From Tubulanus polymorphus (Eukaryota; Animalia; Nemertea), in the NCBI RefSeq assembly GCF_964204645.1, contig NC_134025.1, positions 26,020,299 through 26,084,298 of the forward strand: 64,000 nt of DNA, given 5' to 3'. The notes beneath the pieces were generated by a model that did no database searches, was not told where the DNA came from, and worked only from the letters and a program-made list of their open reading frames with translations. How positions within the stretch are numbered: the first letter of the stretch is position 1; each line of letters opens with the position of its first letter. A program made the position numbers and the translations under genes. Shown piece by piece: positions 1,231 to 49,400 of this stretch.

Positions 1231-1512
1231 TGTGGTTACATAAGGGCTATCATTGATTTAGTAACTCGTAAACAACTTATCTGACGTTGGTCTAGAAGAC
1301 CAAATGCGTGCAATTGCCCTAGGCTTAGGGGCAAATTTATAATCCGGGTATGGAAAAAGTATGGAAAATGATATTGGCTAACCCGTGGGAACCCTGAACC
1401 ATGACAGTTGTCCGAGGATATATGCAAAATTTGTCCACTTTCTCGGCACTTATAGACCCTTACTGATAAATGAATTCTTTTATTCAGGATAGCACAGTAC
1501 TAAGTAATAAAA

Positions 1513-3639
1513 ATGGGAGCATTCTTAGACAAGCCTAAGACTGATAAAACTAACCAGCGCGGTGAAGGAAATGGATTACGTTATGGCCTTAGCAGTATGC
1601 AGGGATGGAGAGTTGAGATGGAGGATGCGCATTGTGCTGTTACGCAATTGCCGGCAAGATTAAAAGATTGGTCGTTTTTCGCCGTATTTGATGGGCATGC
1701 AGGTGCTAAGGTTTCGTTTTACTGTGCCGAACAACTGCTGGAGCACATTCTAACTAATGATGATTTTCGTAGTTCTCTACTCGACGCTCAACCCAGTCTG
1801 GAGAAAATCAAAAACGGCATACGCACCGGTTTCTTAGATTTGGATCGAAAAATGCGCGATATACCCGAAATTTCGAGCGGTGAAGATAAGAGTGGTTCAA
1901 CTGCTGTTGGACTATTGATTTCGCCGCAGCAATTATTTTTTGCGAATTGCGGTGATTCGCGCGGCATTTTGATCCGCGACGGGAAAGTGGTTTATTCGAC
2001 TAAAGACCATAAACCGAGCAATCCGGTGGAGAAAGAACGAATTCTTAACGCTGGCGGAAGCGTTATGATCCAACGAGTCAATGGATCGTTAGCCGTGTCG
2101 AGGGCGTTGGGCGACTATGAATACAAAGGCGTCATGGAGAAAGGTCAATGCGAACAAATGGTGTCCCCAGAACCGGAAATAGCAGTGTTAGATCGACAGC
2201 CAACTGATGAAATCTGTGTTTTAGCCTGTGATGGAATCTGGGATGTCCTTTCGAATGAAGAACTCTGTGACTATGTTCGCAATCGAATGCAGCTCACTGA
2301 CAGTTTAGAGGATATATGCAATCAAGTAGTTGATACCTGTCTATATAAGGTAAGCGTCAGTGCCAAAGAAATACTGTGAAAATCAATTTTGGTTGAAAGA
2401 ATTTTTTCTTGAATAATGGTTTGGTTGCAAAATGTGTAAATGCTGGAATTATTGGTTATTTCAGGGAAGTAAAGACAACATGAGCATCGTGCTCATAGCC
2501 TTTGAAGGTGCTCCAAGACTTTGTCCCGAAGCGGTAAAACAGGAAGAAGAATTAAACCAAAGGATAGGAAACAAAGTAAAAGGTAATCATTGCGTGATAG
2601 ATGACCACTTTCATTTGTTCCTTATACCTGTAAGCCTGCATTGATTGATATTGGTTTTGAGATTCTTAAAAATTATGTGCATCGCTCATTTTGTTGTTAT
2701 TATATTGTAGAAATCATGGAAACTTGTGACCCATATCCTCGCAATGTTTCGACGTTGATGCATGAATTGTCCCAAGTTGGTATAGAAGGTTTACCTCCCG
2801 GAGGAGGTTTACATGCGAAGTGAGTACGAGAAAATGTGATAAGTCTAATCTTGTGAAAGGATCTGTGATGTTTATGACATTGATGCAGGGAGAAAACTTG
2901 ATTGAAAACTTTTCTTTTTCAGACACAATACAATTGAGGAATTTTACCATAAATATCGTCCCATTACAGATAAAGACTCTGAATCGGTGAGAACTTCTTG
3001 AAAAGCCCATCTGGCCATCAAACATTTCAATTCACAACTAAAACTAATAATCTTCATTTTGCATACATAAAGGGTGGCCACTGACCTCAAAAACCTGGAA
3101 AACTCAGGGAATCAGAAAATAATCTTGGATAATTCTATTGAAAAATGAATTGTTACATTTAAAAATGTAGAAGTTTATCACTCGGGGGATTTGTAAATGG
3201 GGTGGAAAGTAGCAACCCTGGTTAACATTATTGATGAAAATCATAAGTTCATATCAAGATTATTCATAAATAGTTCTGTGTTTAAAGCCGGCTAGTAAGG
3301 AAGCTCAGGTATTCACATTAAGGTCATCTTTGTTCTTGGCAAATTGTTAGGTGACATCTAGCTTCCTTTCACCCAGACGGTTGATTGAAGGTGTCGGTCA
3401 CTCCTCAGTAGATTTGAATCAATTGCATTGATTGTATGTGATGTGGTAGTTTCTGGCTGTATGTATGTATATTAGTAGGACATGAACTGTGTTTTCTACA
3501 GGACTTTGCACTCGATTCGGCCAACATTTCAGTAGTGTTAACGCGCATATATGATAATGCTTCTTACCTGCGGGTATATTTTATCACATTTGTGTTTTCG
3601 TTTCAGACCGAACAAGAGAAGTTTTGGGATGGTCCTTAA
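1513..3639 (+). CDS. PPM1A/B: Protein phosphatase 2C, PPM1A/PPM1B orthologue (multi-exon, alternative C-termini)
   Basis: N-terminus [10 protein letters not shown] (myristoylation Gly2). PP2C motifs [67 protein letters not shown] and C-domain GLPPGGGL. Phase-consistent GT-AG exons: 1513-2349, 2465-2582, 2711-2819, 2923-2986, then a terminal exon, most likely 3607-3639 ([10 protein letters not shown]). Alternatives are listed in the findings. Confidence 0.95.
3071..3220. mobile_element. hAT-type MITE relic (CAGGGTGGCCAC-like TIRs)
   Basis: Left end AAGGGTGGCCACT, right end AGTAGCAACCCTG (reverse complement CAGGGTTGCTACT). A related end, GTGGCCACCCTG, occurs at ~36164-36175 in an INVS intron. 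Confidence 0.55.
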
Positions 3640-8673: not shown

Positions 8674-11600
8674 TCATAGATCAGAGGATTCCATTTCAGA
8701 ACCACCTACTTCAAAAGAAGGTTTTTCACTCCCATCAAACATAGGATTGTCTTTAGCATGTGGCGTATCATCAGTGTTCTTTAGTTCACTACTCGAATAA
8801 GCAGTTGCTCGTCCTGATTTCCGGCGATTGTAGAAAATTGCGAGCACACCAAACATAAGAATATCAACACCCATCAAAACAGCAAACACAAAGAACTGGA
8901 CAGACTGGAAAAAATATAATTGGTACCAGTAATAACAACTCTTGTCAATATATGCCACATTGTGTGATGAAACTGTCACCTGAATATACACATTGCAGCA
9001 AAATGTATTCATGGATAACAGCTGTGTATTTATTTGAGTCACTTCAGCAACTTACCATAGCTGTTAAATATTAATATACTGGTATGCTAAATTTCTGATA
9101 AAACATTCTTCAATTATTCAAACATATCTTCAATCAATATGGCTTTTAGAAATAATGGTTGAATCACTACTTACCCTTATATTAACATCAAACTGAACTA
9201 TCATTTGATTTTCATTAGTGATCATAAATTAAATGTATTGTAATCTATTCCGACAACCAGGACCCATGAGAAGATAAATATGATGACTAAATTCGATAAT
9301 TGAAATATTTGAATAAATAACAATTACCGTAATCAGTTAAATTGATTAGAACATGCTCCCAAGAGTATATAGGAGGGTGGGGCTGAGTTGATTTTATCTA
9401 CAATCTTACCGCACTATCAGAAATGGTGACAGTGGATGCAACAATAACAATAAGGTTACCAAAAGCTGTTGTTAACAAGAAGAAAGACTGCACGACCGAT
9501 TTCATAGATACCGGAGCCTGAAAGTTTACAGAACAAAATTGATGAAAATACAGATAAATAAAGTACGAAATACTTACACCATGGCTCATACTTGTCATTT
9601 CAAATAACAATACGATCAAATTGCCGATAGCGATTGTCAATAACCACACAGCCATCAAAACTGATTTCATAGTTTTAGGAGCCTGTCATTGAAAGGAATT
9701 GAGAATCGTCAAAAAATCATTGATAAGTGATAAATATGCGATTAATGGATGTGTCATGAGCAAGAAATGAGTGTCTCCATGGCTCAGCTCTGACTGCATG
9801 CCTCCATAGGAGGTGTTTCAGAAGGGGTAGTTTGTTTGGTTCTGAGCTTCAATCTTACAATCCTTTTAATACAATCTTATTTGGATGAGAAAGGAATTTC
9901 AATCAAATATGGTAAAAGGTGAAAGAAAATGGTACAATAGTTACCTCTGAATATGCAAATGAAAGACCAGTGACCGAAAAGAAGATCTCACCAATTGTAA
10001 TAATGACATATTGAGGTATCTGCAGTAACATTGAGATCTTGTTTGGATTGACATCAGTAAATGTTGCCAAAGAATTCTGTTTGACATACAAATGACACAT
10101 TTTAACATTACAATACCACTGGGAACGACATCAATTTTTGAAAGATGTTTTCTAATTCGCTTACAGTTAGAATAATCACAGTATAAACACCGCCCATTCC
10201 AAGTTCAGGATCTACAGGAATAGTCCTATTGTTTATTATATGAGTACCATTATACACCGGAACTTTAAACTTGTAGCTAGAAATAGTAAGAATGATGTTG
10301 TTGATACATATCAATGATACTATTTAGTGATATAATGACAACTGACTTTCATTGTGTGACATGGATAACTTACATGGGATCAACAGAAATATATTCTGTC
10401 GGTACTGACTTTTTTACTCCATGGAAAACATACTTATCACCATAATACATAGTTCTATTAACAGTATCTGGGATTGAATCATCAATCATATAGACAACTC
10501 TGAAATTAATATTTGATGACATTTAATTTTGTCACCTCATTCTAAACTATTCAACTCATCAAACTTTAAATCTTACCTTACTCTTGCTAATCCTTTGTGT
10601 GGCTTTGTTAATTCATCATGCAACTAAAAAACAATGTACCAATGAAATCTCAATTTTCTTCTAGCTTTTCAACCCCAAGGTATCATACTTAAAAAGACCT
10701 ACTGTTTGAATAACAATGTTTCCAGCAGTAGGTTCTGACACCATCAATGTTGTTTCATTATTTCCTAAATGAACTACTTGATTTTTCTTTGATATATCAA
10801 CACCATTTGGGCAGTGAAGAGTAATGTTCAATGACACATCACCAGATGTGGTCAGTATAGATGGAGTATCCTGAAAATATTGAATAGAATAGAATTTTTA
10901 GTCTAGATTCTACAGATGTAGAAAAACATTACATGTTACCAGTAGGCCTACTTACAGTTAGAGGCGGTACAGGGTTTTCAGATATGTAGAATGGGCTTCT
11001 AATATCCATAGTGCAGTTTTGTACAACATTTGAAAACTTAACACGACTTTCACCCATTTGAAGCTGTGGTACTATTGTTTTCTAGAAATATACATTGATG
11101 AAATGTTCATGCAAAAACATACTAAACTTGGACGGCAGAAGATTCGCAAAAAATTGTTCCGAAAAACACAACTTACATCAATACTAATTTGGACAAATCC
11201 TGCCATTACAAACGCTAAAGCTGCCAGTGCCATGCCAAGTACCATTTTCAGTAACGGTCTATAATAGAGGTAGATTTATATCACCAACAAATTCAATCTT
11301 GATTTTAAATTGCTGTTCATATTTATTACTGAAGACAAATCTAAATGAATTCTATACATACCTATTCATTTTACACTTAGTCATAAGAGGATAAAGACAA
11401 CTTTCAAATATCGGAATGAATATGATGATGAGTATAGTGTTGATTGCCTAAAAATCAAACAAAATCATAATATTTGGTAAATGAAATCAAGAACTTCTCT
11501 ATTTGATTGAAATTTCTATATGTACTACTATTGGTTTTCATTTCTGGATACAGCAATAAACATAGTTATGCAAATGCCCCACCTGTATTTGATCTGGTTT

Positions 11601-14248
11601 GAGAACCATAAATCCCTGAAAAAATATATTGAAAGCTTACAGATGGGGGAACCTGTGTTTGAAAAGGCAGATGCAAGTAAAAAACATCTAAATTTCTAAG
11701 GATAATTTCAATCTATTCCTGATTATATACATACCAAATCGCCATCCATTTGTTCAGCTTGGAGAGTCCAGGTGGATCCCTATAAAATAAGAAAAATTTC
11801 AATCAATAAACTTCACTCCATGCTGTAAGCGCTTTTTACTATTTCATCATCCCTACCTGTTGATCATAGAGAGCCCAAAATACTGGTAGAGGAAGGAATA
11901 TCAACAGTACCCATAACACGGCCTTTACATCTTCAATGAATGTTTTCTAAAATTGAAAATGTTTCAAAGCTATAGAATTTCATCCACATTGCCTAACAAA
12001 TTATTCGTATTGCCTTATGCCTACTCAACACAATAATCTTATAGCCTACCTCATACATATCATCTGCATAATCCAAGACAGAATCTCTTTTGATAGTAGA
12101 CATCGTAAACTTATTAGTAATACCTCTCTGTAGGAGAAAAACATAACTAATTCAAAATAGGATAGTACTTAATAATAGTTAGGTTCTATTTCATTATAAA
12201 AACATACATAAATACACATGAAGAATCTTCCTACAATGTTTCCACTAGGTGGTGTTATTTTGTATGCATTCTTACCACTGACAAAGAAGACTAAAAGACA
12301 AAGCAAAATATTTTGTTATACGAAGAACTTGCCTCTATTCTTCTACCAGATAAATTTCTATTTGAATGATTGATATGAAATGAAATAAACATACTTATTG
12401 CAATAATCATAAGCAATGCAGGAACTCCAAATGCAAGTGGGTAGCAATCTCCACCAAAACACTGTACATCCTCTGTAAAAATATTTGAAGTTTTATGCAA
12501 ATGAAATTGGATCTGTGTATTTGAGAAAGTACAATTTCATTTTGACTAACCTCTGAAAATAGGAGTCAAAAAGGTTGAAATCAGTGACCCAGCATTTATT
12601 GCCAGATAGAAAATGGAAAAGAACTGAGCTAGAAGTCGCTCCTAAAATAAAAAGAATAGATACGATATAGTACAAATAGATAACTTTGAGATATGATGAG
12701 AATATTGTATACACGAATGTCCAGACCTGACTAGGTTCAAATTGGTCACCACCAAAGGCAGATACGCAGGGTTTGATACCACCAGTTCCAATAGCTATCA
12801 AGAGAAGAGCCACCATCGGTCCGGGTACTCTGAAAAAGCCAAATCAATGTCATAGATAGGTTCCATTTGCAATTTTGGAATAGTTTCTATCTCAACTTCA
12901 CTCACCTATTTTCTAATGGAAATGCTGTGAATGACATGATCACATTACCAACAGCATAAACGATAGACAGATAGGTGATTGTCCTAAAATGGCACGTCAA
13001 AAATCATAAATTATCTCAATCAGCATTGGTTTACCGGTAATTTGATTTCCTGCCACTTTTCTTTAAAAGACTGCATTAACTTACTTGAATTTACCGATCC
13101 ATCCATCAGCTATACAAGCCCCGATAATAGGGGTAAAATAGCAAAGCATATTGAAAGCATGGAAAATTTCAGTAGCTGCGTGAGCCCCAAATTGCAGGTG
13201 ATTCTTCAAGTATAAGGTCAGTACAGCTAAAACAACACAGAATGACGAGGATAGAGATTTCAACTGATATAAGCACTGTAAATGCTATTGGTGACATGAC
13301 TTTCTACTTACTTCTCATTCCATAGAAGGAAAACCTCTCACAAAACTCTGTCATGAGAATTAAGAACACCGGTTTTGGATAATCTCGACATGATTCCTAA
13401 AATTGCAAAATGTAAATCACTGGAGTAAGATTCTAGTATTTTGTTTGTTGAAAGAACTGCAACTGTTCAACAGAAATTGATAAATATATATCTATAATAT
13501 ATAATTTCTACCGAAAGTTCTTGGCAACAATTTTTCTTTTCCTTGATTTCATCATCAGGGTCTCTGGCCACATCAAGATCGCAAAGATGGTCTTTTGACA
13601 TCGCACTAGATGTGTTTCCAGTTTTGCCACTTTCAAGTAATCTAGTGCCTACAAACAACATTGAATATGTCAAAAGCATTATAGCTATATATTTCTGCAC
13701 AAGGGCAACAATTACTCCAATACTTTCTATATACAATGTATGTATGTGTTTTTGCAAAAAAAAAACCCATTTTGATATCTGATGAATTGATGTATGTTGT
13801 TAAGGTAAAGAAAAGTCACACTCTTGAATTCATATGATATGAATAAGACAAAATCAGTTATAATTAGATCAATGTTTAAAGTCAATGTCCAGAAAATCTA
13901 AGCATACCAGCATTTGAGTAAGTTGGCCAAAACTCTTTCTAAAAATAGGCGAATATCCAAACCGGGATGTGGATGAAAATTTGAATCAAAATTAGAAAAT
14001 TCCAGGACATATTCAGGGTAATTCTTTATTCAAAAAGAAGGGGCCTAGATCCCATGTGGATCTACCACCATCAAAAGCCTGAGATATGATAAAGAATATA
14101 CATATTTAGTAGAAATTGACAAAATAAAATAGAAATGTTAGCAACAACACGATAAAAAGTAAGTTGATACATTAAGTCTACCTTCATCAATAGGCTTGCC
14201 ATTGCTGCCAGTTGATGATGCACTATCACTATCATGATTCTCCATCAT
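8674..14248 (-). CDS. SLC15A1/2: Proton-coupled oligopeptide transporter (POT/PTR family, PepT1/PepT2-like) with large extracellular domain
   Basis: More than 20 small phase-consistent exons, starting MMENHDSDS (14248). Motifs YPKPVFLILMTEFCERFSFYGM (ExxERF), CYFTPIIGACIADGWIGKF (PTR2), GTGGIKPCVSAFGGDQF, FYLAINAGSL, CYPLAFGVPA, LPLPVFWALYDQQGSTWTLQA and QIPQYVIITIGEIFFSVTGL. Two versions of the TM11 exon (9578-9682, 9410-9517). Last exon 8674-8904. Confidence 0.95.
9410..9517 (-). other. SLC15 TM11 exon, copy B (108 nt, phase 0-0)
   Basis: tttcag|GCT CCG GTA ... AGT GCG|gtaaga encodes APVSMKSVVQSFFLLTTAFGNLIVIVASTVTISDSA. Confidence 0.9.
9578..9682 (-). other. SLC15 TM11 exon, copy A (105 nt, phase 0-0)
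   Basis: tgacag|GCT CCT AAA ... CAT GGT|gtaagt encodes APKTMKSVLMAVWLLTIAIGNLIVLLFEMTSMSHG. Confidence 0.9.
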
Positions 14249-16678
14249 CAATCTTCAGTTCATCTCCATCTAATTAAAAACGATGATTTCATTATTTAGG
14301 GTTTAAAGGATCAGAGTTATATATAGGCTTATATATGCAATATGTTCCAAATAATCAAAAACTTTCAAATTAGGTTAATGCTCAATCCAGACACATGTCA
14401 ACATACGTTTTATTCACATATGTGTTAATAGTGCCTCAAAAACATAAGCCTAACATTATGCGTTTTTATCATCACATTTTCTATATCCTTTTCTTGTGTG
14501 AAATATTGAAAAGAATTTATTCAAAATGCCTGATATAGTACATGAATATGATGTGTTTGTATGAAAGTTAATAAACTTTGTGTACCAAATGACAGTTCAC
14601 ATACCCAAATCAGAACGCCGAATACTGCTAACAAGACTAATGAAATGGAAAGTTTATGGTAAAATTCCGAAGATGAACGTATAAGAAATCCTTAGATCCT
14701 AAATCCTTTGAATGAATATTGTGTCACTTAAGAAAAAGAATCATTAAATGTTTTTAACATAAACCAATGGAATCCTTAAAACTAGCTGAAGGCCACTATA
14801 TGAGCCACACTCATCTAAATATTCATCCTACATAGTGGATAACAGAATCTACATTGCGTTTTCAAACTGTCCATGTAGGTGAAAAAATAGTCCATATGGC
14901 ATTAATGGAAATCCTTGCCGGCTGGTTTTATATGCACGAATGCTGTTCACTGTGAGCAATGATATGGTGGCGACGCAAAACAATGATTAACCCACTGTGA
15001 CCTGTTCTTGCAGAATGCACAGCATATTAAATTGTAATGAAAATGACCTTTATCTGCAATGCTGACAAAAATATAAGTGATTAACGCACTTTTTGTTACT
15101 TTAAATACCATGCCCTAAAATATAATCATTGTTATTGCGTGTTATTGCCCTATACATATCAAAATTTATCAAATGACCTGGCAAAAGAAAATATTAATTA
15201 GAAAATAGTTAATCAATGTGTCTTGTTTGACACCTTTGTAAAGAATCAGATAGATTTTCATGATAAGCCTCATAGATAACTACTACTAGAAATAAGAAAA
15301 GACCACAAATGGTTAAAATGCAATTATCTTGCCATGTGATAGAATCACACAGAATTGTTGAATAATGAATGATAAGCAAGTTGACCATCGCTCTATGACA
15401 AGAATAATCATTACAGGTGCTTACCTTAGGTTTATCAGTACATCAACAGCTTTACTGCACAGACCAATTCTACTACCTGCAATGACAAAATAGATGACTT
15501 CATGCATCACAACGATCCTTAGACAAATAGAATCGATAATGGAACAGTTTGAATATTTAAGAGTGTAAATCTAACCTAACATGTACTTAGAATCATGGAG
15601 CAGAAGTCTCAAACCTAACCCTAATCTTATTCCTCAGCAAGGATATTTACCAGAGAATTGAATGCCATACCATAATGGCATGAAAAATTTGATAAATTGG
15701 AAAAATTTAGGTATGTTTGTCTTTAATAAACTTTTATGACCAAATTGAATTTAATAACATTATGTAGGAGTGTGTGTATATCAATTGGATTATTATCAAT
15801 ATTGAGATTTTTATTCAGATCACATTAATATTAAGCTTCTATGGCAGATTCTGACTTACCCAATGTTACTACGATATCATTCCATTAACAGAAAGGTAAA
15901 TATTGATGTAGGATCATATTTAGGCTGTGATCATTGCTGTGTTAATTACACTATCAATCACATCAAGAAGTCAATTTACTCCATTTCCCCACCCCCTTCC
16001 GCTAGGTTTCTAGTTTCATTTTACTTACAAAGTGTTTTGTTGCATAAAATACAAACAATTGAAAGACGGAAGTAGATATTAAAATCTGGAAACAGAATCA
16101 TTGAGATGCATCACAATAAAGGTGAATTAAATCGCCACTTACTGTACTGGTATCGAATTAGAAATTTCAGCTAGGAACCAGTAAACTGCTTTACGTTTAT
16201 GATAATATTCAATTGACTATCTCAATCAGAAGATAGTTGGACATTACTAAATGCTGTTTTTAGGTTATGACCCTTTATAAATAGAGTTTCGTATTGACAT
16301 ATTAGACTCTGATAAGTGATAATCTAGGATATAGGTACAAAAGGTTTTAAAAATGTATCGGAAAGGTATAAAAATATGCAAGGGATAGATCTGATGTCTC
16401 TAATCGACTCTAATCAATATATGGTGTAACTCAATGTTTAAGAAAATTTCCCTTCATCAATAGAAGAGTTTGAAATTGATGAAGCTGTGTCTATAGAATA
16501 TTGCAAAATACAATCGTCTTAACTGCGATTTCTATGGGACTTATTAATCAACTGCATTAAATTAAAGTACAAAATTGGTAGCCTATGTGACAAGGCTTAA
16601 TTAATGGCATAAATTTCGAAGATTTTCAACCTTTTCAAATTCTAAGATTTCCAAAGCAGTTGTTCCAATCAACTCACT

Positions 16679-31546: not shown

Positions 31547-33389
31547 TTTTTGTCTCGCTTATGCTTTCACAGATTTTCGATTTACAGTTCAATACCGCCA
31601 ACTCCCGTGTGCTATAGTTACTCTGGAGCAGTACCTTGATAAGCAATCTATAACAGGGAAGACCTTGGCTTCACATACTTAACAGGCCATCAACTTAATC
31701 TTGATTTTAAAGCGCAGGCTTATGATGCAGGTGTCCTTTAGGTATTCATCTACAGCCCGACACACCACCCCGTTCAATACTTATATCATCATTCTTCCAA
31801 TTCTTGATTCTCAAGGCTTCTCAAGGCTTTGCCTTTGTGTTCTGGTCCTCAGAATCGAAGTAACAGCTGGACAACAAACAGCAGAAATTGGTCATTGTAA
31901 TGCAACACTTTAATGTCTTAAGGTCTTGGGACCACACTGGTTCAACACTTACTTCACTGTTACTGATTAGCGGGTACGTAGCTGTTAGATGTTAGATACC
32001 AGTACTGTTAACTAGGGAAGCGATGAAGGACCTCGAGTTGTCGTGTTCCGAGTCGTCATATTTAGGTCGATGAAAATCGGTCGAAACTGACTTGAAACTC
32101 GGTCGTATTTCTGGCATCCTCATCTTACATTTTGACGTGTTGTCAAATGACAACTTGTCACGTGGAAAATGGGTGACAAGGTGTAAAAATGTCACGATAT
32201 GTCAACATGTTCATGTCGACTTGACGCAATATATTGATATAAATATGACGACTTGTTGCATTGGGATGCAACAACTGGAGGCCCCTTATCACTTCCGTAG
32301 TAAACAGTCAAGCAGAGATTTGCATATCTTTTACAGTAATTCAATTTCTTATCAAAGAGTATATAGTCTATGGTTTTATGTACCAGCAAGCATCTGTCAG
32401 ATTGACAACAAGTCAATGCCCCTTGATTATACAAATGAAAAAAAACTTGCAAGTTTTCTATAACAAGAAAAAATCTTTTTATTAGAAGTCAGGTGGAAAA
32501 TATGAATATCCTTCTATCAAAATTATGTAACAACCATATTCACAATTCAATTACAGCAGTTATTATAAAACCATGGACTCAAACAAATTTACAACAGATC
32601 AAAAGAAACTTCACATCAACACATTCATTTCTTATTACCAGTACATATTAATCAGTATAGAATTCATGAATTACATATCCTTTTGTTAAACCAATCTTAT
32701 CAAAAATCAATTTTGATTAGAAAAGCATAATTACATAATTATAACTCATAACTTATTCATAATTCAGGTACCAGGGTAATGTATTTTCTTGGAGTAGTAG
32801 ATATGACATTATGCTGGCTTAAAATTACTCACATTTGCCTTAGATAAGAAAGCTGGTAATGAATCATCACATACCGGTACACGATGATGGGTAACAATAA
32901 AAATCAATTTATCATAATAAAAATAAACTAAATCTAACAAACAGCCCAAATCTACTGGCATTCAGCATATTGTGGATATAAGAAAGCTGACTATGAGTCA
33001 ATCTCTTACATGATTATGCAGAAAAGTGAAGTCAATACATGTATATCCTGTTATGAAACTATATTTAATACTTTTTTGTATTTGATATGTATATATACCA
33101 GTAATGAACAGGACCTGGAATATTCAGCAATAAATGCACATACAGTTGCTAAAAGAGCTCAAATTTTTGGAAGGACTATTTAAGGAACCACTTAAAAACA
33201 ATTGAATGAATCATTTAAAAACTCTCACCAAAATGTTAAAAAAAATATCTTTCACAACGACAATGTTTCAGCAGTTGACACCACTTGGAATTAGTACAAG
33301 AGCCTTTATCCTAGTTCAAGGGACAATCCTCTGATCGAGTACATATGACACATCAACTCCGCACAGTTCAGATCCACAGCAGCACAGAT

Positions 33390-36300
33390 TCATTTCATCA
33401 TATTATATGACCAGTGTTTTTTTGAATTTTTAGATGAACTTCTGGACACAGAAGGCTTACGAATACCAGCTGAAATAGAAATGATAGATTTATCACATAT
33501 CTAATTAACAATTAAATAGCAATGATAGATTTATCACATATCTAATTAACAATTAAATAGGTTGTAGTTTAAGAATGAATTTGTATCAATATCAACTCAG
33601 GAGCGAAATCCACAGTTTTGGTCTAAATTGTGTGTATAGGGGAGACTGATTGTGACTACAGAGTCAAGTTTAAGACATGATTGGAACCAACTCCTGAGAA
33701 GTTGGTGTGAATGTTTAATGTACCGGTACCTTTATTACTTTCATCGCTTGATCCTACAATATCACCATTACTACTACTACTGCTAGTATTACTATTACGG
33801 TCACTACTGCTAGGAACTATTTGTGACTTTGAATGACCTTGTCTAGCAACAACAGGGTGATACTGATCGACTGCAAAATTATAGGATAATGCTGAAAAAG
33901 AGAAGTAAAAAATTGGCCAATTTATAATGAAAATGAGTTTTTGAACATAAACCTAATGGGGGGGAGGGGGTGGCACGATCAAGCTTACCGGCTGGAGATG
34001 GAACATATTTTGACCAAGTCGGTCGCGTTGGACGGTTATTTGTAGGAGTCCATCCACCTGGCTTAATTTTTTCACCTTCAAGAGGAAGAAAACAATGATT
34101 TAATGTAGCAACTTAATATTCATAAACTCTCATGCCAAGTAAAAGTAGAACAAGCCATAGGCGACAACGGTTCTCGGGCTCAGACTCGAACTCTGAAATC
34201 ATCACGTGTTAGTTCCCATTGCATTTTGGAAATTTTGTATCTAGGGCCAATAGCTAAATTTTGTTAAGATAATTTTTTGAATTTCAATCCTAGTGCCAAT
34301 GGGGCACTGGGCCCATTCTTTAGCTCTCTGCACAATTAGACCCCATAATGACATTGTACCAAAGTTTCATCAAGTTCAAACCGCTGAAAGACAGACACAC
34401 ACACACATTCAAACAGACAGTACAAGGATAAGGGTCTCACGGAAGCCCAAGAACCAATCAGAACTTACTGTATATTTCTTTAACAATCGTTTTTTGTTTC
34501 AGGGATACACTTTCAGGATCCCATGTATGTACAACATGTTTTCTATTTGGCGTTATAGTTTTCAACAAGCGTTTTCTGAAAAGATGAACAAAATATTCTA
34601 TACCAGGTAATTATGATCTTTATAACATGACAATCAATTATCAGTACCGGATAATATGTTATTCCAAATACCTGCAGTATTTTCTCCAGGCGAGTTGAAT
34701 TGTTAGAGCAGCTATCTGTCGAATCCACTCCTCTTCTCCGGCTTCTAAACGCTTATTTCTTATCGCATCCTGGGCAGTTTTCAGAACTCCCTTTTTGATG
34801 TACAAATAACTGGAACAAAAGAAGTAAATAAACAAACTGAAATTATTCAATTTTAAAAAGCAAGATGGCTTTTCTTCCAACACGCACTGTCTAAATCCAC
34901 GCTGAATAGTCGAAGCAGCTTTTTGCTTCAGTCTAAATTCATCTTGTCGGCTTCGTTCGGCATCAACCACTTTTTTCCGGTTTTGTTGCTTGCGTAGAAT
35001 TCTTTCTTCTTCCGTTAGAATGATCTCATTACGTTTACGCCTTCGCCGAGTGGTAGCCGGCTGTTCATCTAAAAGAGCTTCTGCTGCGATGATTTCCTCG
35101 ATTCGTCGGTTTTCTATTTCTTGTAAGTTTTTAATATTCTGACGACGTTTGTATTCATCATCAGCTTTTTTCCTTAGAAAAAAAAGAATTTGAAGTAGCC
35201 CTGTTAAAACTAATTGAATAACCTAAGCATTTTTCGATCTACTGATAATACTGACTTAGCTGCATCTTTTCGAAGTTGTTCATGTTTCATCAGCAATTGC
35301 TTTCTCTCGAGGAAAGTTTTACGAACTCTGTAGCCGCGGAAATACGACTGAACTTTAGCCGCTGCGATTTCCTGAATTCCGCTGATTGACAAAGATCCCT
35401 GTTCAATGAGAAACTGCGCAACAGCGTGATGTTCACCCATCAGTGCATAATCCAAAGGGGTATATCTAAAAGGTATACATAACATAATAATCAATTTCAT
35501 GGTAACTAAGAGAGAATTTCACCCTTAGCAATAGCATTAATTACTTTTTTCTAATACAATTGATAATCTGCATATTTGTTGGTAATTTCATTCATCTTTG
35601 CCGAATATGGCCTTCAGAGAACCTAAATATGAATTGCACTTAAAACGTTATTACCTGTCCTCTGTAAATTCCATACGGTTTGAAAACGCATTATATTCGA
35701 GCAGTAGTTTTACTGCGTCGAGATGTCCTTTACTGCAAGCCCAATGTAAGGCACTCATTCCCTGAAAGATTTAAGTAATGCTCATTCAAACATCACGTTA
35801 GATGAATGAAGATTTATCAAAGAGTAAGTCGCTAATGTGCTACAGTGTCGTTTATAGACATACCTCATTATCTTGCGTGTTAGGATCAGCTTTGTTCTCT
35901 ATGAGCACAGACATACAATTTACACAACCACCATATGAAGCACAGTGTAATGGCACCCGACTACAAATAAAATGACCAGATTTGAAAACTGAAAATTGCC
36001 ATTAGAGTAAAATCATAGGCGAAAACTGTTTGATTATGCTAACTATCTAAACAAATCTCCCTGACATTCGTTGATTTTTAGCTTTTTTACAAAATTCCCT
36101 GACGATTCCCCGACTTTTTTGAATTTAAGAAAATTCACCAATTTTTCGTTGATTTCCAGATATGTGGCCACCCTGTGTACTGTAGGCTACATACCCCGAT
36201 AGGTCTCTGAAGTTGGGATCAACGCCGTACTTGATAAGCATTTGACAGATATACGCATGACCGCCGAGAGCAGCCCAATGAAGTGGAGATCGACCGTCAT

Positions 36301-39196
36301 TATCGACTAGATCGACTCGAGCGCTGTGATCCATTAGCGTCTGCACCACATCAGTATGACCCATTTCACACGCTCGAAACAATGGCGTATGTTTCAGTAG
36401 ATCGGTACTGTCTATTTGTGCTCCGTTATCGAGTAGAAGTTTCACGGTTGATGCGTGACCGGACAATGCAGCGGCGTGAAGAGCTGAATAGATATATTAG
36501 AAAATGATGCAGTCATTTAAATTCTTAATCGAATGAATATTGCATGAATTGGAAAAGTTAACAATTGCATTAACAGTTTAATCAAGGTGTTTCAATCAAG
36601 CTAACTATGGTTATCTTCTATTCTAAATCATAGAGAATGATCACCAGGGACTGTATTAACCATCAGGTGAGTTAACCCCCTGATAAGTTGGGTGAAATCT
36701 CACAATTTTCATTAATTCATTGTAGGATTCTTGCAGAATTCTAAACTAGTCTCTTCGACATACATTAATAATACCAGTAGTGTACATTTGCCCTCACCTG
36801 AAGCACCATTTTTGTCAACATTTTTTATATCTACTTTCTCAGTATACTTCATCCACACTGTTAACACTTTATCGGCACCTTTACTACACGCCCACATGAA
36901 AGCTGTTCTTCCATCTACATCAGGCTCATCGACTATTTTATCACTTTTGAGGAAGATCTCTGCAGTTTCCTACAACAGAAATTTGCATTATTTACATCGA
37001 ATTTAACAGACAACCTAATTGTTATACTGCCGACATAAGTGCAGTGTAAAATAGCTAGAGAATTTTACTAAAATAGAGACAAGAAAACCATTCTATTTCA
37101 AAAGCTCAGATGATGTCTTAAGGAAAACAAAGATTTAAGGAAACTTACAGCATAATTGTTCTGCGCCGCATAATGTAAAGCAGTAGCACCATTTGAATCA
37201 GAACTTGCATAGTCAGCACCTCTTGCTAGTAACATCGCAACCACACTTGTATGCCCTATGTATAGATTTAAAAAGGAGACATGAAAATATTTCACAAAAT
37301 TCTAACGACTAGGAAATTGATATCACCAAGTTTACAAACCTAACACAGCAGCCCAGTGAAGGGGTGTACGAAACATGTTGTCTAATGCAGAAACATTACA
37401 TTTCGGAGTCAAGGTCTAAAAATTAAAAATCGTAATTCTTGAAATGGAGACTACTTTCAAGAGTTTAAGGGCAGAAACTAAGATTTCCATATCATAACTC
37501 ACTAAAACATCAACAATGGCTTCGCTTCCTTCAGCAACTGCTAAATGTAATGCTGTTCTACCTTCGTAATCTTGCCAATTTATTACACTCGGAGCAACTT
37601 CCTACATAGAAAGAAAACAAATTCAGTAAGTCGAGATATTAAAGTGTATATTCATGACAGGGTTTGCACAGCTCTCACATAAAAATTAATGACTATTTAA
37701 CACAAATATCACTTTTCATGTCTGTACACAACCTCGTTGAAAAACTTACAAGTAATAATTTTACGCAATTAACAGCCTGGTGGTCATGGCAACTCGCCGC
37801 CCAGTGAAGAGGCGTTTTTCCTTCTGTATCCGGAATTCCGATATTAGAATCTTGTTTTAGCAGCATTCTCATATGATCTAAATTCCCATACGATGCACTC
37901 CAGTGTAAAGCAGTCCTCTAGATAAATGAAGTATCCAGTTTAGTGTTCTAGTATCATCATTTTTGCATCGTTTACAGGACAACTTACTTTCATATTGTCT
38001 TGATCATCTACTTCTCCGGGCATAACGTACTTCAGCAAAAGGGCTAAACATTTTGAAGCCTTGTGTCTTGTACATAATTGCAAAGCAGTTTGACCTTCAA
38101 GATCTTTTTCTTTCCATTCAGAACCTTTTGATAGCAACAACTTCATCAGCCGATGGTTACCCTGTTTAAATAATAATTAAATGATATATTTCATACATTT
38201 TTTCAGTTAACTTCTCAACAACAAATACCTTTGGTTCTGGGCAAACCATTAGCAATGGATAGGTATAAACTGTGAGCATCACGCCACCTTATTGTTCATT
38301 CTATTTTTCTAACATACACAATATAGGCCTACTCATTAAGCAAAATTCACCTTATGAGCCGCCCAATGTAAAGCAGTTCGTCCTCCTTTATCAGTTTTAT
38401 CTATGAAACAGCCAGCTTTGATGAGAATTTCCGCACATTCTAATCGATCAGCCAGAACACAGTACATCAGAGGTGTTCGACGAAACTGATCTCCAATATC
38501 AATTTCTCTTGGATGGCCTGTCAATTGCACAACAGTAGACATAACGGTAAACACATTTGTTTGGAATGAATGAGGGGTGAAGACAACATAGTCAAATAAT
38601 GAATTCACAAGATAGTGTGTGTTGGTAGTGTTTGAAAATCTGAAAACTACCTCCAGAAAGATAAGCATCAAAGTATTTTCAAGAATGTACATTTCTTGGC
38701 TTTAAGCTGTAGCAGTTCTGAGACAGAAAAAACTTACTGATTATGAATTTTCCGAGTGTATTTTTATCCCCATTCACAGCAGCTGCGTGTAACTGCGTAA
38801 TGAACTGATTTGCCAGCTTTGTTTTTGACATATTCAAAGCAGCTTCGCTGTCCATCTGAAAATACATATCAGCTATAATGTATCCTGTGAGACATACTTT
38901 GCCGTTTTCTAAAACGCTGGGATGTGTCAACCTTTGAAAGTCAGGGTCAAAGTATCTTAGATTTAGGGTCGAGAATCTGAATTCCATAGGCTTACTACTG
39001 TATTGATCATCATTATTCATGTAAGGTTGGTTAGGATTAGGGATAAGGGTTAGGTCGAAATAGTGATCATTTGCCGATGATTTGGATTGTATCCGCGTAG
39101 GCTTAATATTGGCAAAGCCAAAAGTATTCACTTTTGCATTCAATTCGATTTACTCACTCTACTCAACATTCCTGGACGATGGCCAGCAGTAGCCAT
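33390..39196 (-). CDS. INVS: Inversin (NPHP2): ankyrin-repeat array plus IQ motifs
   Basis: Colinear with vertebrate inversin: QLHAAAVNGDK, DQFRRTPLMYCVLADRLECA, KCLALLLKY..PGEVDDQD, SGHASTVKLLLDNGAQIDSTDLLKHTPLFRACEMGH, RYTPLDYAL and IAAAKVQSYFRGYRVRK..LLMKHEQLRKDAA. Proposed first exon 39158-39196 (MATAGHRPGMLSR). Proposed last exon 33390-33469 (..KHWSYNMMK*). The termini are less certain than the core. Confidence 0.93.
33480..33560. repeat. 41-bp tandem duplication next to the last INVS acceptor
   Basis: AATGATAGATTTATCACATATCTAATTAACAATTAAATAG(C) occurs twice, identical over 40 nt. Confidence 0.95.
34149..34457 (+). mobile_element. Helentron-associated non-autonomous element (HINE/DINE-1-like) in an INVS intron
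   Basis: Starts AACAAG. Subterminal inverted repeats GGTTCTCGGGCT (34169-34180) and AGCCCAAGAACC (34444-34455) match 11/12. It also carries an internal ACCAAAGTTTCATCAAG motif and a GACA/CA microsatellite near the 3' end, the typical HINE layout. Confidence 0.7.
37658..37736. mobile_element. Short degenerate MITE relic in an INVS intron
   Basis: CAGGGTTTGCACAG ... CTGTACACAACCTCG form imperfect TIRs. Confidence 0.35.
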
Positions 39197-39399
39197 TGTT
39201 AACAGTCAGTAGACTCCCTTAGTCTTTTTCACTGATTTAGCGTGTGTAAGCCGTTTTCTGTGTAATGTACCACCAACAGACGTCAGGACCAGTAGTCCCA
39301 GGTGGCTGCCGTTCTTTTGTTTTAACAATTCACATTCAGTGAACAAAAAATTATCGTCAACGACATCGATCCAGATCAGCAATTGTGAATAAGCCAAAG

Positions 39400-40080
39400 T
39401 AACAATTTTGAGTTCGCCATCTAATAAGGGCCAATTTATCAGTTTTGAAAGAATTTATTTTGGATCATTTTTTTACTTCCTGGTTTTGGTTGTCAACGGG
39501 GTTAAATCTCATACGCGAAAGGAACATTCTAGAAAACACGGAAATGAAATAATGCGTTAAACCACGGACACGGATTATCAACAACTATCGCACGATTTCG
39601 GGCGGGCCGGGGATCAATAACCACCTCATCACACGTGAAGATTTTATTTTCTACCTGCTACAATTACGATACGATTAAGAAATTTGTCCGGATAACTTAT
39701 GTAAATTGTTGCGCCTGGTCCTTCGTCAAGGAAAGAAAAGATCCATGGGAGCGGCGAACGACTCCGGTCCGCGGACCGGATGGCAATCTTTCCAATCCAG
39801 GAATTTTTATTTGGCCTGACTCTCCAGTTATATATTTTTTCGATATTCACTTCACCCAAGCCATATTCATACCGGTCAAATACTGGCTAAGGTAGGCCTA
39901 AACCGTAACCTAGAAAAATCTTCAAACACTTTAAATAGACTATTCAAACTCGCGAATGACGAGCATGTTGGTGTTTTGCCCATACACGCATATCAGCCCG
40001 ACCGACCGCACAGTGACCAGTGTCTGACCGGCGTATAGACACTATACTCAGTGGCATACGTATATGTTAGAAAAAGGTGA
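39400..40080. promoter_or_regulatory. Divergent (bidirectional) promoter region of INVS and the fucosyltransferase
   Basis: CpG-rich. YY1-like CGCCATCT (~39415), ETS-like ACTTCCTGG (~39476) and GC box GGGCGG (~39600). A + strand donor AAG|GTGAGT at ~40076 pairs with the acceptor ttttcag|G at 41509 just before the FUT ATG. Confidence 0.55.
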
Positions 40081-41519
40081 GTAAATAATGAAATACAATC
40101 GTTTGAATCCAAAACATTAATGTGCACAGGTTGCCGGTTTCGTTAGATTCAACTTAATGAATTCAAACTAAAGATATACAAACTCTCCAACTATTAATGA
40201 ACTGTTCCACGTTAAAACTGTATACATTCATACGTGGAGTTATATCGTGATAAGTTATCGCGATATCGCGATAATCAAAGCGTTTATATCGATCAAGTCT
40301 ACAAACTAGTCAGCAACTGTTGAAGATGAGATTTTATTTGTTGTTTTGCCATTGCAGCTCACAATGATTCTGCTCCGCCGGGGAGCATTTGATAACTCTA
40401 ACCAAATTATAGGTAATCTCCAATGTCATCCGTGATATTGATGATAACTGTAGACTACTTTGATCCTTTCAATCATGGAATTCGTTTTAGGGTCCATGTT
40501 TCAACTTAGGACATTTCAACTACACTAAATGATAAAAACTGGATTCTTGATGGCTACCCCCACATGCATATCATTTAAATATCTATTGAAATATAAAATT
40601 CATTCATTCATATCCTCAGTTGGCTATTGGCCAAGAGGATAACTACAGAAAATGATCAATCGTTATGGAATATCGTTTTTGAATTCAGAAATTATTTCAT
40701 CAAAATCCAGGATGAAAAATGAATGTTTTATATGTTTATTCACATTTAACGATGATCGCGCCGTTAAACGTATTTTCATAAACATATGCGACGACTAAAA
40801 AGGATCGTCTGATTTCTGCGGTTACATTATCGTTGTTCTGATACTGGCTTTTAGTGAATAGTAAATCAGTGAGGCACTGATGATTTTCTGGTGAGTTTCT
40901 GGTCGGTGAGAGCATGGATTCTTCGTTTTTAGAGTCCATGCTCTAAGTAACCGCCATCGTGGTTTTCGTACCAAAAGTTTTGAACTATGATGGACGCGCT
41001 TGTTAGCTTTTCATTGTTCAAACATACGCGATATTGTCAGACTATTTATCAATATACCGTCGGTCAACATGATGGTGGTGTTATTTTACAGAAATCACGT
41101 GTGACGTTTGTATTTTCATACCGCAACGCAGGTATATATAATACATTAAATCGAAATATACGGGCCACATAAAAGTCCAGGTTGTCAATATATATAGTTG
41201 GAAATTACCGGTAAAAATATATATCGGTTATTGAACTCTAAATTTGATTCGCACAATCGGACTGTGACGGCTGTGACAGAAATGTATTGGTATAAAAGAC
41301 AAAAAATATCGTATGTTGCAAACAAAAAGGGATCTGGATTACAAGGGTCGAACTCCATCACACGCTATGTTACAATTATTTTGACACCTGATTTTTCTAA
41401 CCGGATAAAAGTACTTAAAAGAGCAAAAGTCCATAGGCAAATTCACAAGGAATAAGCGAGGAGATATCGTACTTTATTCTTATTCTTGTCATTTCTCTTA
41501 AATTTTCAGGTGCCGGAGT

Positions 41520-42581
41520 ATGCAAGGAAGAATGGGCAAGCGACTCGTTCCATTGTTCACCGTCTTCTCGTTATTTGCCATTATCGGTATGATCGGGTAT
41601 CTACGAATAATTCCCCAACGCCAAGAAGCGTATCGTCTTGAAACATCTGACTTAAATACTGCTGCAGCCAAAACAAACGCCCGTACAGAAATGACAATCG
41701 AAATGAGTGGTAGACTTGGAAACAATATGTTCCAATATGCGGCCCTGCTCGGTATCGCCAAAGCAAGAGGCAATATTCCAGTGGTTCTCAACAAAGGCAA
41801 CGAGTTAAGGGTAATATTTAATTTGTCGGCCAAGTTACTATCGGATAACGAATACAAACACCGAATTGGATATAGTAAAGATAATTACGTAGAGAATTGC
41901 TGCCTCTATAATCCGAATTTAATGAAGAATATTCCGATAAAAGGAAAATTCGTATTAAAAGGATTTTTCCAGAATTGGAAATACTTCCATCCGCATGTGT
42001 CCGAACAGTTACGCCGAGAATTTACATTTCGGAAAGTGATCGTCGACGCCGCAAATTCGTTCATCTCATCATCCAGTGCAGGTTTTAAACGAGAAGTACT
42101 TTATTTTAATAAACAAGCAAATTACGTGAAATCTTTGCGGAAAAGAAAAACGCGTTCAGATAAAGTAACATACGTAGGTGTACATGTTCGTCGTGGGGAT
42201 ATTACTAGCCACTATTACATAGAAGCTGGTATGAGGCAACCGACTATGGATTATTTCAAAAAAGCGATGGCGATAATGGAATCGTTGTATGAAAACGTTT
42301 TTTATTTAGTATGCAGTGATGATTTGGATTGGTGCAGGAACAAATTCGGCCACATGAAAAATGTTGCCTTTTGTCCTGGTAAGGATCGTGTGGTCGACAT
42401 GGCGATACTATCGCATTCAAATCATTCCATCCTGACTGTTGGATCGTTTGGTTTTTGGAGTGCCTTTTTGGCCAATGGAACAACCACATACTTCGGAAGC
42501 GCGCGGGCTCCTGGCTCTAGTGTTGATGTGGTTTTTAGTTACGCCCAATATTTCATGCCGAAATGGATCAAAATTCCATAA
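41520..42581 (+). CDS. Galactoside alpha-1,2-fucosyltransferase (glycosyltransferase family 11), type II membrane protein, single coding exon
   Basis: 353-aa ORF with an N-terminal TM (LVPLFTVFSLFAIIGMIGYL) and GT11 motifs GRLGNNMFQYA, GFFQNWKYF, VGVHVRRGD, VCSDDLDWC and DMAILSHSNHSILTVGSFGFWSAFL. AATAAA at ~42613. Confidence 0.95.
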   Translation: MQGRMGKRLVPLFTVFSLFAIIGMIGYLRIIPQRQEAYRLETSDLNTAAAKTNARTEMTIEMSGRLGNNMFQYAALLGIAKARGNIPVVLNKGNELRVIFNLSAKLLSDNEYKHRIGYSKDNYVENCCLYNPNLMKNIPIKGKFVLKGFFQNWKYFHPHVSEQLRREFTFRKVIVDAANSFISSSSAGFKREVLYFNKQANYVKSLRKRKTRSDKVTYVGVHVRRGDITSHYYIEAGMRQPTMDYFKKAMAIMESLYENVFYLVCSDDLDWCRNKFGHMKNVAFCPGKDRVVDMAILSHSNHSILTVGSFGFWSAFLANGTTTYFGSARAPGSSVDVVFSYAQYFMPKWIKIP

Positions 42582-46420: not shown

Positions 46421-49400
46421 TCAAGCATGTGAAATAGCATTAACAGATAGAGCGTAAGGATCCAGTAATTGCTTTCTAGTTGGAGAAGGAGACCGCGAAT
46501 GGTTCAAAGTCAAATTCAATGAGTTCCGACTTCCGAAGCGGTCTTTTGGAGGGGTCATGCTGCGATTATTACTGTCCATACTGGCAGAGCGATCTCGCAC
46601 CGCGCCGGGAACTGATAACAGATTATTTTTCGTTTTTGCACGATTCATCTCGTTTATATAGTCTTTCATAAGATGAGCAATTTGTGAGGCCTGAAAAAAG
46701 AAAGTAAATTCGCTAATGACTACAAATTATGCATAGGTACATATACAAATAAACAAATTGTATATAATTCAGTATTCAACTCCAAATTCAGATTTTCAGA
46801 TTTCAGATTCAAATTTTGGGCTGCAAATAGGTCTAGGGTAGATACATGTATATAACAAGTATCAAGACAATCCATTGAAGCGTCATCAAAACTTCGCAAA
46901 ATAAGTGTCATCTGTCTATGATAGGTGGTAGGTGAAAAATGAACACAATAGACCTTTGGGGTAGGCTAAAAACATTATGCTGATATAAAGGCTGAATTAC
47001 CAACCTGATTTGTCATGAATATGAATTTGGTTCCTTTCGCGACGTTTCCTATAATAACTAACAAGCTTTTCATGGAAGGACTGTAGGAGACTATTTCGCT
47101 GTAGTTATAGAATTGAAGAACTTCCTGAAAATAGATGAATAAATAGATTCCTATACATACATCCATAAACTTCATCAGCTGGCTGCACGTATTGTTAAAT
47201 ATCTTTCTTACTTTTCCTTTGACAGCCATCATGTGTATTCCAGTTTTATTCACGAATAACCATAAATCTTTTGGAAGTGAAGACACATGTGATTGCTGAA
47301 AACATATTCGAGTCAACTTTCATATAGATGAATGATTACAGACATGAATCAGTATCAAGATTCGAATCAACGGAACTTGTCAGCCAAGCATATGAAGTAT
47401 TGATCTCACCGTTACTTCATAAACCATAGCCCCATAAAGTGGCCAGTTCCTGAGTACATCCATAGATGCTAAATGGGCCTGAGTAGCATCCATGCCCTTC
47501 AACGCTCCATGCATAGCCATTATATCATTGTCGTGTACAGAATCACGTAATGATCGTGGAAGAATTCTAGTCACCGTGCTGAAATTAAACCAAAAAATCT
47601 GACAAAATTGTTCTAATATAATCCAATGAATTGTGTCAACTCGATTCAATTCAAATATCTCTTACCTGTAGTCGATTTTCCCAGCAGTTTGTGTGTCACC
47701 AAACTCTGATTGAGCTCGCAGGGCACACAGGTGGACCTGAAAATGATGAAAATATCTTATCAAAAATCTGTTGTGGTGCCGGCAATTGTCTTGGTGAATA
47801 AAGATGAACGTACAGCATCTTGAGTTGACAAAGGAACCTTCTCCTCAAATACATCTATCACAGACTGATGGTGAATAAGATCGACTTCAACTTGATCCGC
47901 AGGATTCACAAATGGCTCAATAAAAATTCTTTTCTGAAAATTTGTCATGTAATATTGAGATATGAATTGCACTATAGTCAAAAGAATAAGTTGAAATTAA
48001 ATTTTTTAACTTCTGCAGTTTTCACTGCATTTTAGCAGATAAAAGATGAAAACTGCCAGAAAGAATGCACTCCAAATGTGGAATTGCAAAATATGTTTAA
48101 ATTCAACGTAGAATTTCACAATATGTTTAAATTCAAGCTCATGTTCTATTAATCATTTCAATACACATGTGCTAACCAACAAATTATCATTCTTACCCGG
48201 AATGTAAATTTGAGGTCTTTATTTGATTTGCTCGATCTCGACCATCTCTCCCATTTATACATCGCGTCAACTAAGCTATCATCTAGTAACATGTTGCGTT
48301 CCAACTGGCCGCATACTTCATACAACGCCCAGCCTTTTGCGTCAGACATCATTCCTATTTTCGATTTGACCATCTGAATGACCTCTTCAGCCGTACATGT
48401 TGAATCAAATTCCAGCATGCGATGTTGCCCATCCAAGAAGTGAATCTTTTCGTGGACATATTTTCTGAAAATCATTGACAAAGCCTTCATTCCAGCGAGA
48501 CTTAGTAAGCTAAGGGGCCAGTTTCAGTTGAAAGCTGAAGTTAGTTTGCTCATATGGAAATATAAACTAGATTATAGTTTATATGTCCATGTTCAGCTGG
48601 AATGGAACTTATCACACACCTTTGGATAATGAACGATATTTCTCTGTAAGACGGTGGGAATTTTCTATTTTGTTTTTCCAATGTTTTATTCAGGCACTGA
48701 AAAAATATGCAAGATTATCAAAACCTCGCGATACACATTCATACGGGAACAAATTACCGATCAAATTTTAATTGTACTTACCTTCTGGCAAAAGACAGCA
48801 AATTTGCCCTCTTCAGTTATTCGTTCTATGGCACACTTGCGTAAGTGCGATTGTAAGTAATGTAGGATAGTCTGATTGGTTGGCACAATAACGGCACAGG
48901 CCATTGCCAGCAGCTGCCAATTTCGTACATTCACACGACTATTCGGATCTGAAAACAGATAGATTTGAAATGTCGATTTGAAAAAATTAGAATGAGAGGT
49001 GCATATCAGGAGTATGAAATAACAATTGAGGAAGCAAGACAAAGAAATGCTTGATGACTATTGACAATGACCAAAATAAGATAAAGTTGATGTTATATAT
49101 TACCTGGATGATCTGTAGTTTGTTTAATCAGCTGAAGGTAAAACTCATTGCATATATCTTCAGATTCCAGACATTTGTTCAACAAAACTTGTATTACTCC
49201 AAGGTGGTCGTCACCTTGAAGGTTAGCTATAATAGAAAAACTTACAATTGAAATCTAATATTCCTAATGCAAACCCATTTCCATTTTAAGAGATCTAATG
49301 TTTGATCTAGCATCTTAATCTAACGTTTGCATGATACCGCTGAACCTGCGAACCATTAACTCACAAATTCTATATTCGACACTGTACTTACTGGAATTAT

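Follow-up and report, generated by a model that had tools for sequence, protein, structure and literature searches.

The window, a 64,000-nucleotide stretch of the genome of the nemertean Tubulanus polymorphus, carries on its minus strand a gene of the PepT1/PepT2 type of the SLC15 (POT) family. Its coding span (8674..14248) comprises 23 coding exons per isoform, as delimited by exact spliced mapping of both RefSeq proteins, a Pfam PTR2 match (E 2e-109) and the joints of RNA contigs. The two proteins, XP_074660939.1 (isoform X1) and XP_074660946.1 (named SLC15A2-like isoform X2), map letter for letter to the window in 23 GT-AG exons running from 14248 to 8677, and the protein cluster of the latter has these two as its only members. 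They have 739 identical residues, and their difference is confined to transmembrane helix 11 (TM11) and its loop: X1 contains exon B and X2 contains exon A, with no difference elsewhere. The A/B alternative is already annotated in RefSeq, as two automatic models that leave mechanism and function uncommented. Alternative RefSeq models usually require transcript support.

The PTR2 domain (PF00854) of the protein scored 366 bits against a cut-off of 27. Alignment to 7S8U and 7NQK revealed the ExxER motif, TM2 His, TM4 Lys, FYxxIN, TM7 Trp/Asp, TM8 Asn and TM10 Glu, and the TM11 Lys is retained in both exon A and exon B. The predicted structures of both isoforms have 12 membrane helices (pLDDT 85, pTM 0.83) in an MFS fold, with an extracellular beta domain between TM9 and TM10; in both models, the alternative exon corresponds to a helix (residues 666–691/692) and the loop to TM12. 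The best structural match of the A-isoform model was 7PMY (Foldseek E 1.7e-44, TM-score 0.87 by target, 39% identity). Human PepT2 (SLC15A2; 7PMY) and PepT1 (SLC15A1; 7PMW/7PMX) resemble the T. polymorphus protein in fold, beta domain and the ExxER, PTR2, TM7, TM8 and TM10 motifs. By Pfam, motifs and modeled fold, the protein is classed as a PepT1/PepT2-type carrier, and proton-coupled transport of di- and tripeptides is predicted. A tblastn search found no second PepT gene in the window.

At the 5′ end of the gene, RNA contigs of sequencing run X2 leave the first coding exon at ~14270 towards two upstream stretches, at 14606 and 15427, each of which adjoins a GT donor (window 14270–15440, minus strand). 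The PepT gene likely has a choice of two 5′ untranslated first exons here. Elsewhere in the window, a single 291-codon open frame (1504–2379, plus strand) encodes nearly a whole PP2C phosphatase domain (E 8e-75) and is apparently intronless here. Another single open frame, of 359 codons (41502–42581, plus strand), matches glycosyl transferase family 11 (alpha-1,2-fucosyltransferase-like; E 4e-30) and is partly covered by a low-depth RNA contig. The minus strand also holds a spliced multi-exon gene with ankyrin repeats (33000–39600), the source of 15 intron lengths compared below, and exons with MyTH4, RA-like and FERM/PTB-like domains (46900–52600) that likely belong to a MyTH4-FERM protein.

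Two TM11 exons in one transporter gene

The alternative exons lie on the minus strand between constitutive exon 21 (9945..10076), which encodes TM10 and whose donor is used towards A or B, and the last coding exon (8674..8904), which encodes TM12, the cytoplasmic tail and the TGA stop; both neighbors are placed by spliced mapping and RNA contigs. Exon 22A (9682–9578; 105 nt, 35 codons) is the one in isoform X2, and exon 22B (9517–9410; 108 nt, 36 codons) is found in isoform X1 and in assembled RNA. Each encodes TM11 and the following loop, is stop-free and of phase 0-0, and is preceded by AG and followed by GTAAG. A GT..AG intron of 60 nt (9577–9518), itself in frame and stop-free, divides them, and a protein search with the open frame across both exons retrieved isoform X2. 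Upstream of A lies an intron of 262 nt (9683..9944), with a branch-point-like TTGAC 27 nt from its acceptor; both of these introns were delimited by spliced mapping and a sequence scan. The intron downstream of B measures 505 nt (8905..9409; spliced mapping and RNA contigs). An earlier note on this DNA had described two homologous phase 0-0 exons 60 nt apart, with intact AG/GTAAG sites and no stops, and this description was confirmed on the minus strand. Adjacent, homologous, similar in length, equal in phase and encoding the same structural element, A and B are tandem duplicates.

A TM11 profile derived from 234 distinct segments of relatives and run against all six frames of the window matched exons A and B at i-E 1.2e-15 and 6e-16, respectively. 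No third TM11 exon copy was found in these frames, the other two profile matches listed having i-E values of 2.5 and 6. The scores of A (58.3 bits) and B (59.5 bits) fall in the lower quarter of those of the relatives, with 43 and 47 of the 234 segments scoring lower. Both exons align to human PepT1 residues 610–637 (7PMW) and PepT2 residues 637–664, and exon position 13 corresponds to W622 in PepT1 and W649 in PepT2. The alignment bears out the proposal that the exons encode TM11 of a POT transporter and that the Trp position is that of W622. The contrast drawn in the note between Trp in A and Phe in B is also correct, but it is one of 20 differences between the copies in the aligned proteins.

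In PepT2 numbering, Lys642, Leu650, Gly656 and Asn657 are kept in both exons. At Trp649, A keeps the Trp and B has Phe; at Gln646, A has Met and B keeps the Gln; and at position 653, A has Ile where B has Thr. Published descriptions of human PepT2 place W649, L650 and I653 in the lining of the side-chain pocket (bioRxiv 2021.07.07.451464; PMC11464717), in support of the claim that the TM11 Trp lines this pocket, and assign Lys642 and Gln646 to the inner gate (PMC8386928). Two of the three TM11 pocket positions differ between A (Trp/Leu/Ile) and B (Phe/Leu/Thr). Of 99 aligned relatives, 98 retain the TM11 Trp, so Phe in an expressed form is unusual; in a wider, partly redundant set of 290 segments, Trp occurs in 271 and Phe in 4. 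Met occupies the gate position in 11 of the 99 relatives.

Over codons 1–24, A and B agree in 16 residues and in 46 of 72 bases, with pS of 0.72 and pN of 0.25 (Fisher p 0.001). Codons 25–33, the C-terminal third, are without sign of constraint (pN 0.75, pS 0.86). The synonymous distance is based on 14–17 sites. Of 14 degenerate codons common to both copies, 10 differ silently, a count that simulations reached in 5% of cases only at ~1 substitution per site summed over both copies, and synonymous sites are near saturation. Conserved columns were defined as the 19 columns at least 75% conserved among the 99 relatives; A keeps 16 of them, and so does B. A simulated neutral copy kept at least 16 in 7% of cases at 0.2 substitutions per site, in 0.7% at 0.3 and in 0.01% (1 of 10,000) at 0.5. 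The splice-site scores of both exons are within the range of the gene's other sites, the acceptors being mid-range and the exon A donor on the weak side (5.3 bits; 3 of 21 others are lower and one is equal). The sole variant listed in exon A, at 9626 in DNA runs X1, X3 and X4, is synonymous, which as a single point is weak.

Because 16 of the 19 conserved residues survive in each copy despite near-saturated synonymous sites, exon A is no drifting relic and was constrained for most of its history, which leaves room for a very recent silencing. The comparison was made copy against copy and against family columns, with both copies from a single species. Neutral evolution of one copy, which the note had named as an observation that would speak against its reading, is at odds with these data: both pS/pN and the conserved columns point to purifying selection on each copy. 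The long retention of two constrained copies suggests some use.

Exon use and exclusivity

Four sequencing runs contain the stretch; none is on record as RNA, and run X2 proved spliced. Run X1 shows even depth and no splicing, and runs X3 and X4, also without splicing, have loose ends that resemble adapters. In the contigs of run X2, exon 21 is spliced to B (9944 to 9516/7), with A skipped, and B in turn to the final exon (9410 to 8904). Among the joints listed for this one RNA run (15 of 21), no junction of exon A and no joint of A to B was seen, in assembled contigs, which drop rare forms. The same contigs leave exon A uncovered (depth 0 in bins 9524–9931). Contig depths were 138 over the last exon, 125 at the junction of B with the last exon and 16 over a retained intron; though a poor measure, they leave little room for A in that sample. 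In the sample of run X2, B is included and A omitted, which is compatible with use of A elsewhere. The contig of depth 16 (as against 125 for the spliced junction) crosses the B-to-last intron unspliced (window 8876–9439), with indels at 9312 and 9380, and represents a retained intron or pre-mRNA.

These data bear in two ways on the suggestion that A and B are mutually exclusive. Alternative use is supported by the RefSeq models, X1 with B and X2 with A, and by the RNA contig that skips A. Of the two chains of junctions that the note expected in RNA, upstream–B–last was found, but upstream–A–last was not among the assembled contigs of the one run. Exon A might have been functional for long and now be silent or spliced as noise, B being the sole real product and isoform X2 a model drawn from stray reads or protein alignment. 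Such a silencing would accommodate the skipping of A in assembled RNA, its weaker donor, its lack of the conserved gate Gln and its being one residue shorter. It sits poorly with an open frame, intact sites, a profile score equal to that of B, conserved residues that include the Trp lost by B, a synonymous variant, and a gate Met with counterparts among the relatives, and we regard it as unlikely. That both isoforms are made as protein is, in our judgment, a claim that deserves good confidence, with the B transporter common and the A transporter probably rarer or tissue-limited.

The arrangement of the introns suggests how A and B could be kept apart. The 20 other introns of the PepT gene span 76–533 nt, and the neighboring-gene introns span 70–393 nt (15 listed of 29 joints). 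The 60-nt A–B intron is shorter than all 35 of these (minimum 70), which fits steric exclusion. For human introns, the steric criterion for exclusive exons has been given as a donor-to-branch-point distance below 50 nt (Hatje et al., PMC5740500). The A–B intron has no strict branch-point match; loose candidates are predicted 19, 23 and 35 nt from the donor, and any branch point at least 14 nt from the acceptor lies at most 46 nt from the exon A donor, within the steric limit. We infer that this intron probably does not give the spliceosome enough length to join A to B, so that exclusivity would be enforced sterically. Frame surveillance cannot enforce it, because the lengths of A, B and the intron are each divisible by three. 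The flanking introns (262 and 505 nt) are longer than all other introns of the gene except the first, and leave room for regulatory elements.

It is conceivable that A and B are included together, or that A, intron and B are kept as a single continuous exon, to give a longer protein. The combined stretch is an open frame of 91 codons and would be unaffected by the decay of frameshifted messages. However, 43% of shuffles of the intron are stop-free, which with a 1-in-3 chance of a fitting length leads to an expectation of ~14%, and the intron-coded stretch is too little hydrophobic for a helix (19-residue mean 0.2–0.8). With no helix coded by the intron, TM12 and the tail of such a product would be inverted; on the 12-helix fold, a protein with both exons would gain a helix and have TM12 inverted. 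The RNA skips A, the two-member RefSeq cluster contains no such model, and the 2 of 312 proteins with two TM11-like segments hold them 515 and 635 residues apart rather than adjacent. A product containing both exons is therefore highly improbable. The open frame through the 60-nt intron, and an apparent likeness of its translation to the start of TM12, were treated as chance on the basis of the shuffles and the hydrophobicity.

RNA pairing was considered as a further basis for exon choice. Intron–intron pairings were no better than those of shuffles, and flank similarity between introns was not above shuffles (76, 245 and 39 of 300). Exon A pairs with the downstream intron near 9017–9069 (1 of 100 and 1 of 150 shuffles were as low) and with the upstream intron near 9800–9770 (3 of 150 as low). 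A long helix of about −46 kcal/mol is predicted between 9017–9069 and 9656–9572, from the core of exon A to the downstream intron; in a fold of the whole cassette it also covers the exon A donor, and B passed a similar control. Seven pairings were tried. Exon 2 reached −24.4 compared with −24.8 for exon A, two exons outscored A in pairing with the upstream intron, and exon B with its donor beat 40 of 40 shuffles. A docking-site and selector pairing at exon A was not counted, given the seven trials, the like scores of other exons and the passing of B.

Predicted transport by the two isoforms

A bacterial homologue provides a guide to the Trp-to-Phe exchange. In PepTSt, the Streptococcus thermophilus POT, the helix-11 residues at W, W+1 and W+4 are Trp427, Phe428 and Ser431, as against Trp649, Leu650 and Ile653 in PepT2; this equivalence is taken from published pocket descriptions, our own sequence alignment of PepTSt covering residues 77–268 only. 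Trp427Phe was reported to leave transport unimpaired, and Trp427Ala to abolish it (PMC3419923). For W427F, the di-Ala IC50 was given as similar and the tri-Ala IC50 as 98 versus 340 μM, an affinity increased ~3.5-fold, while mutation of Ser431 severely reduced transport (PMC4149780). Exon B carries the same Trp-to-Phe change plus Thr at W+4. W427F is a single substitution, engineered into a bacterial protein that is only distantly related, and the analogy spans a large evolutionary distance. In the one homologue tested, then, Trp-to-Phe alone is a mild change. Our best prediction by this analogy is of two working transporters, of which B, the form in the RNA, would bind tripeptides more tightly, with small dipeptides little changed.

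Both isoforms may instead be made and transport alike, the copies persisting for regulation, trafficking, loop differences or redundancy, and the pocket changes being tolerated drift. W427F leaves overall transport and di-Ala affinity unchanged (PMC3419923, PMC4149780), the exons agree in the Lys642 and Leu650 equivalents and in the TM11 Gly and Asn, and most A/B differences fall in the poorly conserved exon end. These points have to be set against the divergence at the gate and at two of the three pocket positions in TM11, the tri-Ala shift upon Trp change and the sensitivity of W+4 in PepTSt (PMC4149780), and the retention of two constrained copies over a long time, which suggests use. Equal transport includes the splicing part of the explanation that we prefer; judged by its share of the total, it is somewhat unlikely, if the most serious of the alternatives.

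We consider it probable that of A and B, two old TM11 duplicates under constraint, one is spliced in per transcript, which would give two transporters of modestly different peptide affinity. The A form would rebuild a pocket like that of human PepT2 (Trp/Leu/Ile at 649/650/653), with Met replacing the conserved gate Gln646. The B form would combine the Phe/Leu/Thr pocket with the gate Gln and, by analogy with PepTSt W427F, may bind tripeptides more tightly. Provided that both are made as protein, we lean towards a measurable kinetic difference between them. More tentatively, and with slightly less than even chances, this would be the first SLC15/POT transporter with a pocket and inner-gate helix exchanged by splicing, a canonical Trp/Leu/Ile carrier and a Phe/Leu/Thr carrier of higher tripeptide affinity serving different tissues.

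Relatives and known systems

Sixteen other protein clusters were looked up, of which 14 are multi-member, including those of Lineus, Lingula and Owenia; four short or partial members were left out. No TM11 swap within one species was found among the differences listed for the 14 multi-member clusters, and the members compared differ, among these listed differences, at the N- or C-termini or by scattered substitutions. In a quick tree, the Lineus longissimus protein joins the Tubulanus protein (SH-aLRT 95), the duplication being undated by the tree. The single TM11 segment of L. longissimus has 20 identities to A and 21 to B, compared with 16 between A and B. It resembles each copy more than the copies resemble one another, as would fit their divergence from one Lineus-like exon. 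Among the proteins of relatives compared, the A/B pair is so far known from one species. In two database proteins (P0022 and P0059; 1158 and 1183 aa), a pair of TM11-like segments lies widely separated; these proteins are likely fused models of tandem PepT genes.

The parallel that the note drew with the vertebrate PepT1/PepT2 pair is a loose one. Vertebrates have two genes, both with the TM11 Trp, whereas T. polymorphus has one gene with two TM11 helices, one of them with Phe. Because both vertebrate proteins keep the Trp, their difference is not due to this residue. A closer likeness is found in SLC12A1 (NKCC2), whose exons 4A, 4B and 4F are described as tandem-duplicated exclusive membrane-helix exons of a solute carrier, with differing ion affinity (PMC8373072, PMC6873903). 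SLC12A1 is reported to have three such exons, vertebrate-wide, with a frame shift upon double inclusion and measured kinetics; the T. polymorphus cassette has two exons, in one species so far, with the frame kept and a kinetic difference that is predicted. SLC7A2 and SLC25A3 are named among tandem-exon substitutions (PMC8373072), and SLC25A3 and SLC39A14 among mutually exclusive exons (PMC5740500). For SLC7A2, a table in PMC13394352 gives CAT2A as the low-affinity and CAT2B as the high-affinity form. These three belong to other families than SLC15 and have other substrates. Tandem-duplicated exclusive exons are reported to be enriched in Drosophila transporters and channels, in a paper whose main text does not contain the term "SLC15" (PMC8373072).

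Searches of the openly accessible literature, at the level of titles and abstracts, found no duplicated or mutually exclusive exon in SLC15, in line with the note's impression that the case is apparently undescribed; the accessible parts of PMC5500509 and PMC8246967 add nothing further on exon structure. The literature search also found no paper on Tubulanus intron sizes. The splicing pattern itself is known, and the SLC15 case would join the established pattern of duplicated exclusive exons tuning solute carriers.

The structural basis on which PepT transporters tell apart thousands of peptides and peptide-like drugs is still being sought, and near-identical natural isoforms that differ at two pocket positions and one gate position allow a direct comparison. 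If our interpretation is correct, SLC15 would be added to the transporter families that tune affinity via duplicated exons, and the T. polymorphus gene would provide a natural isogenic TM11 swap for probing di- versus tripeptide preference in PepT1/PepT2.
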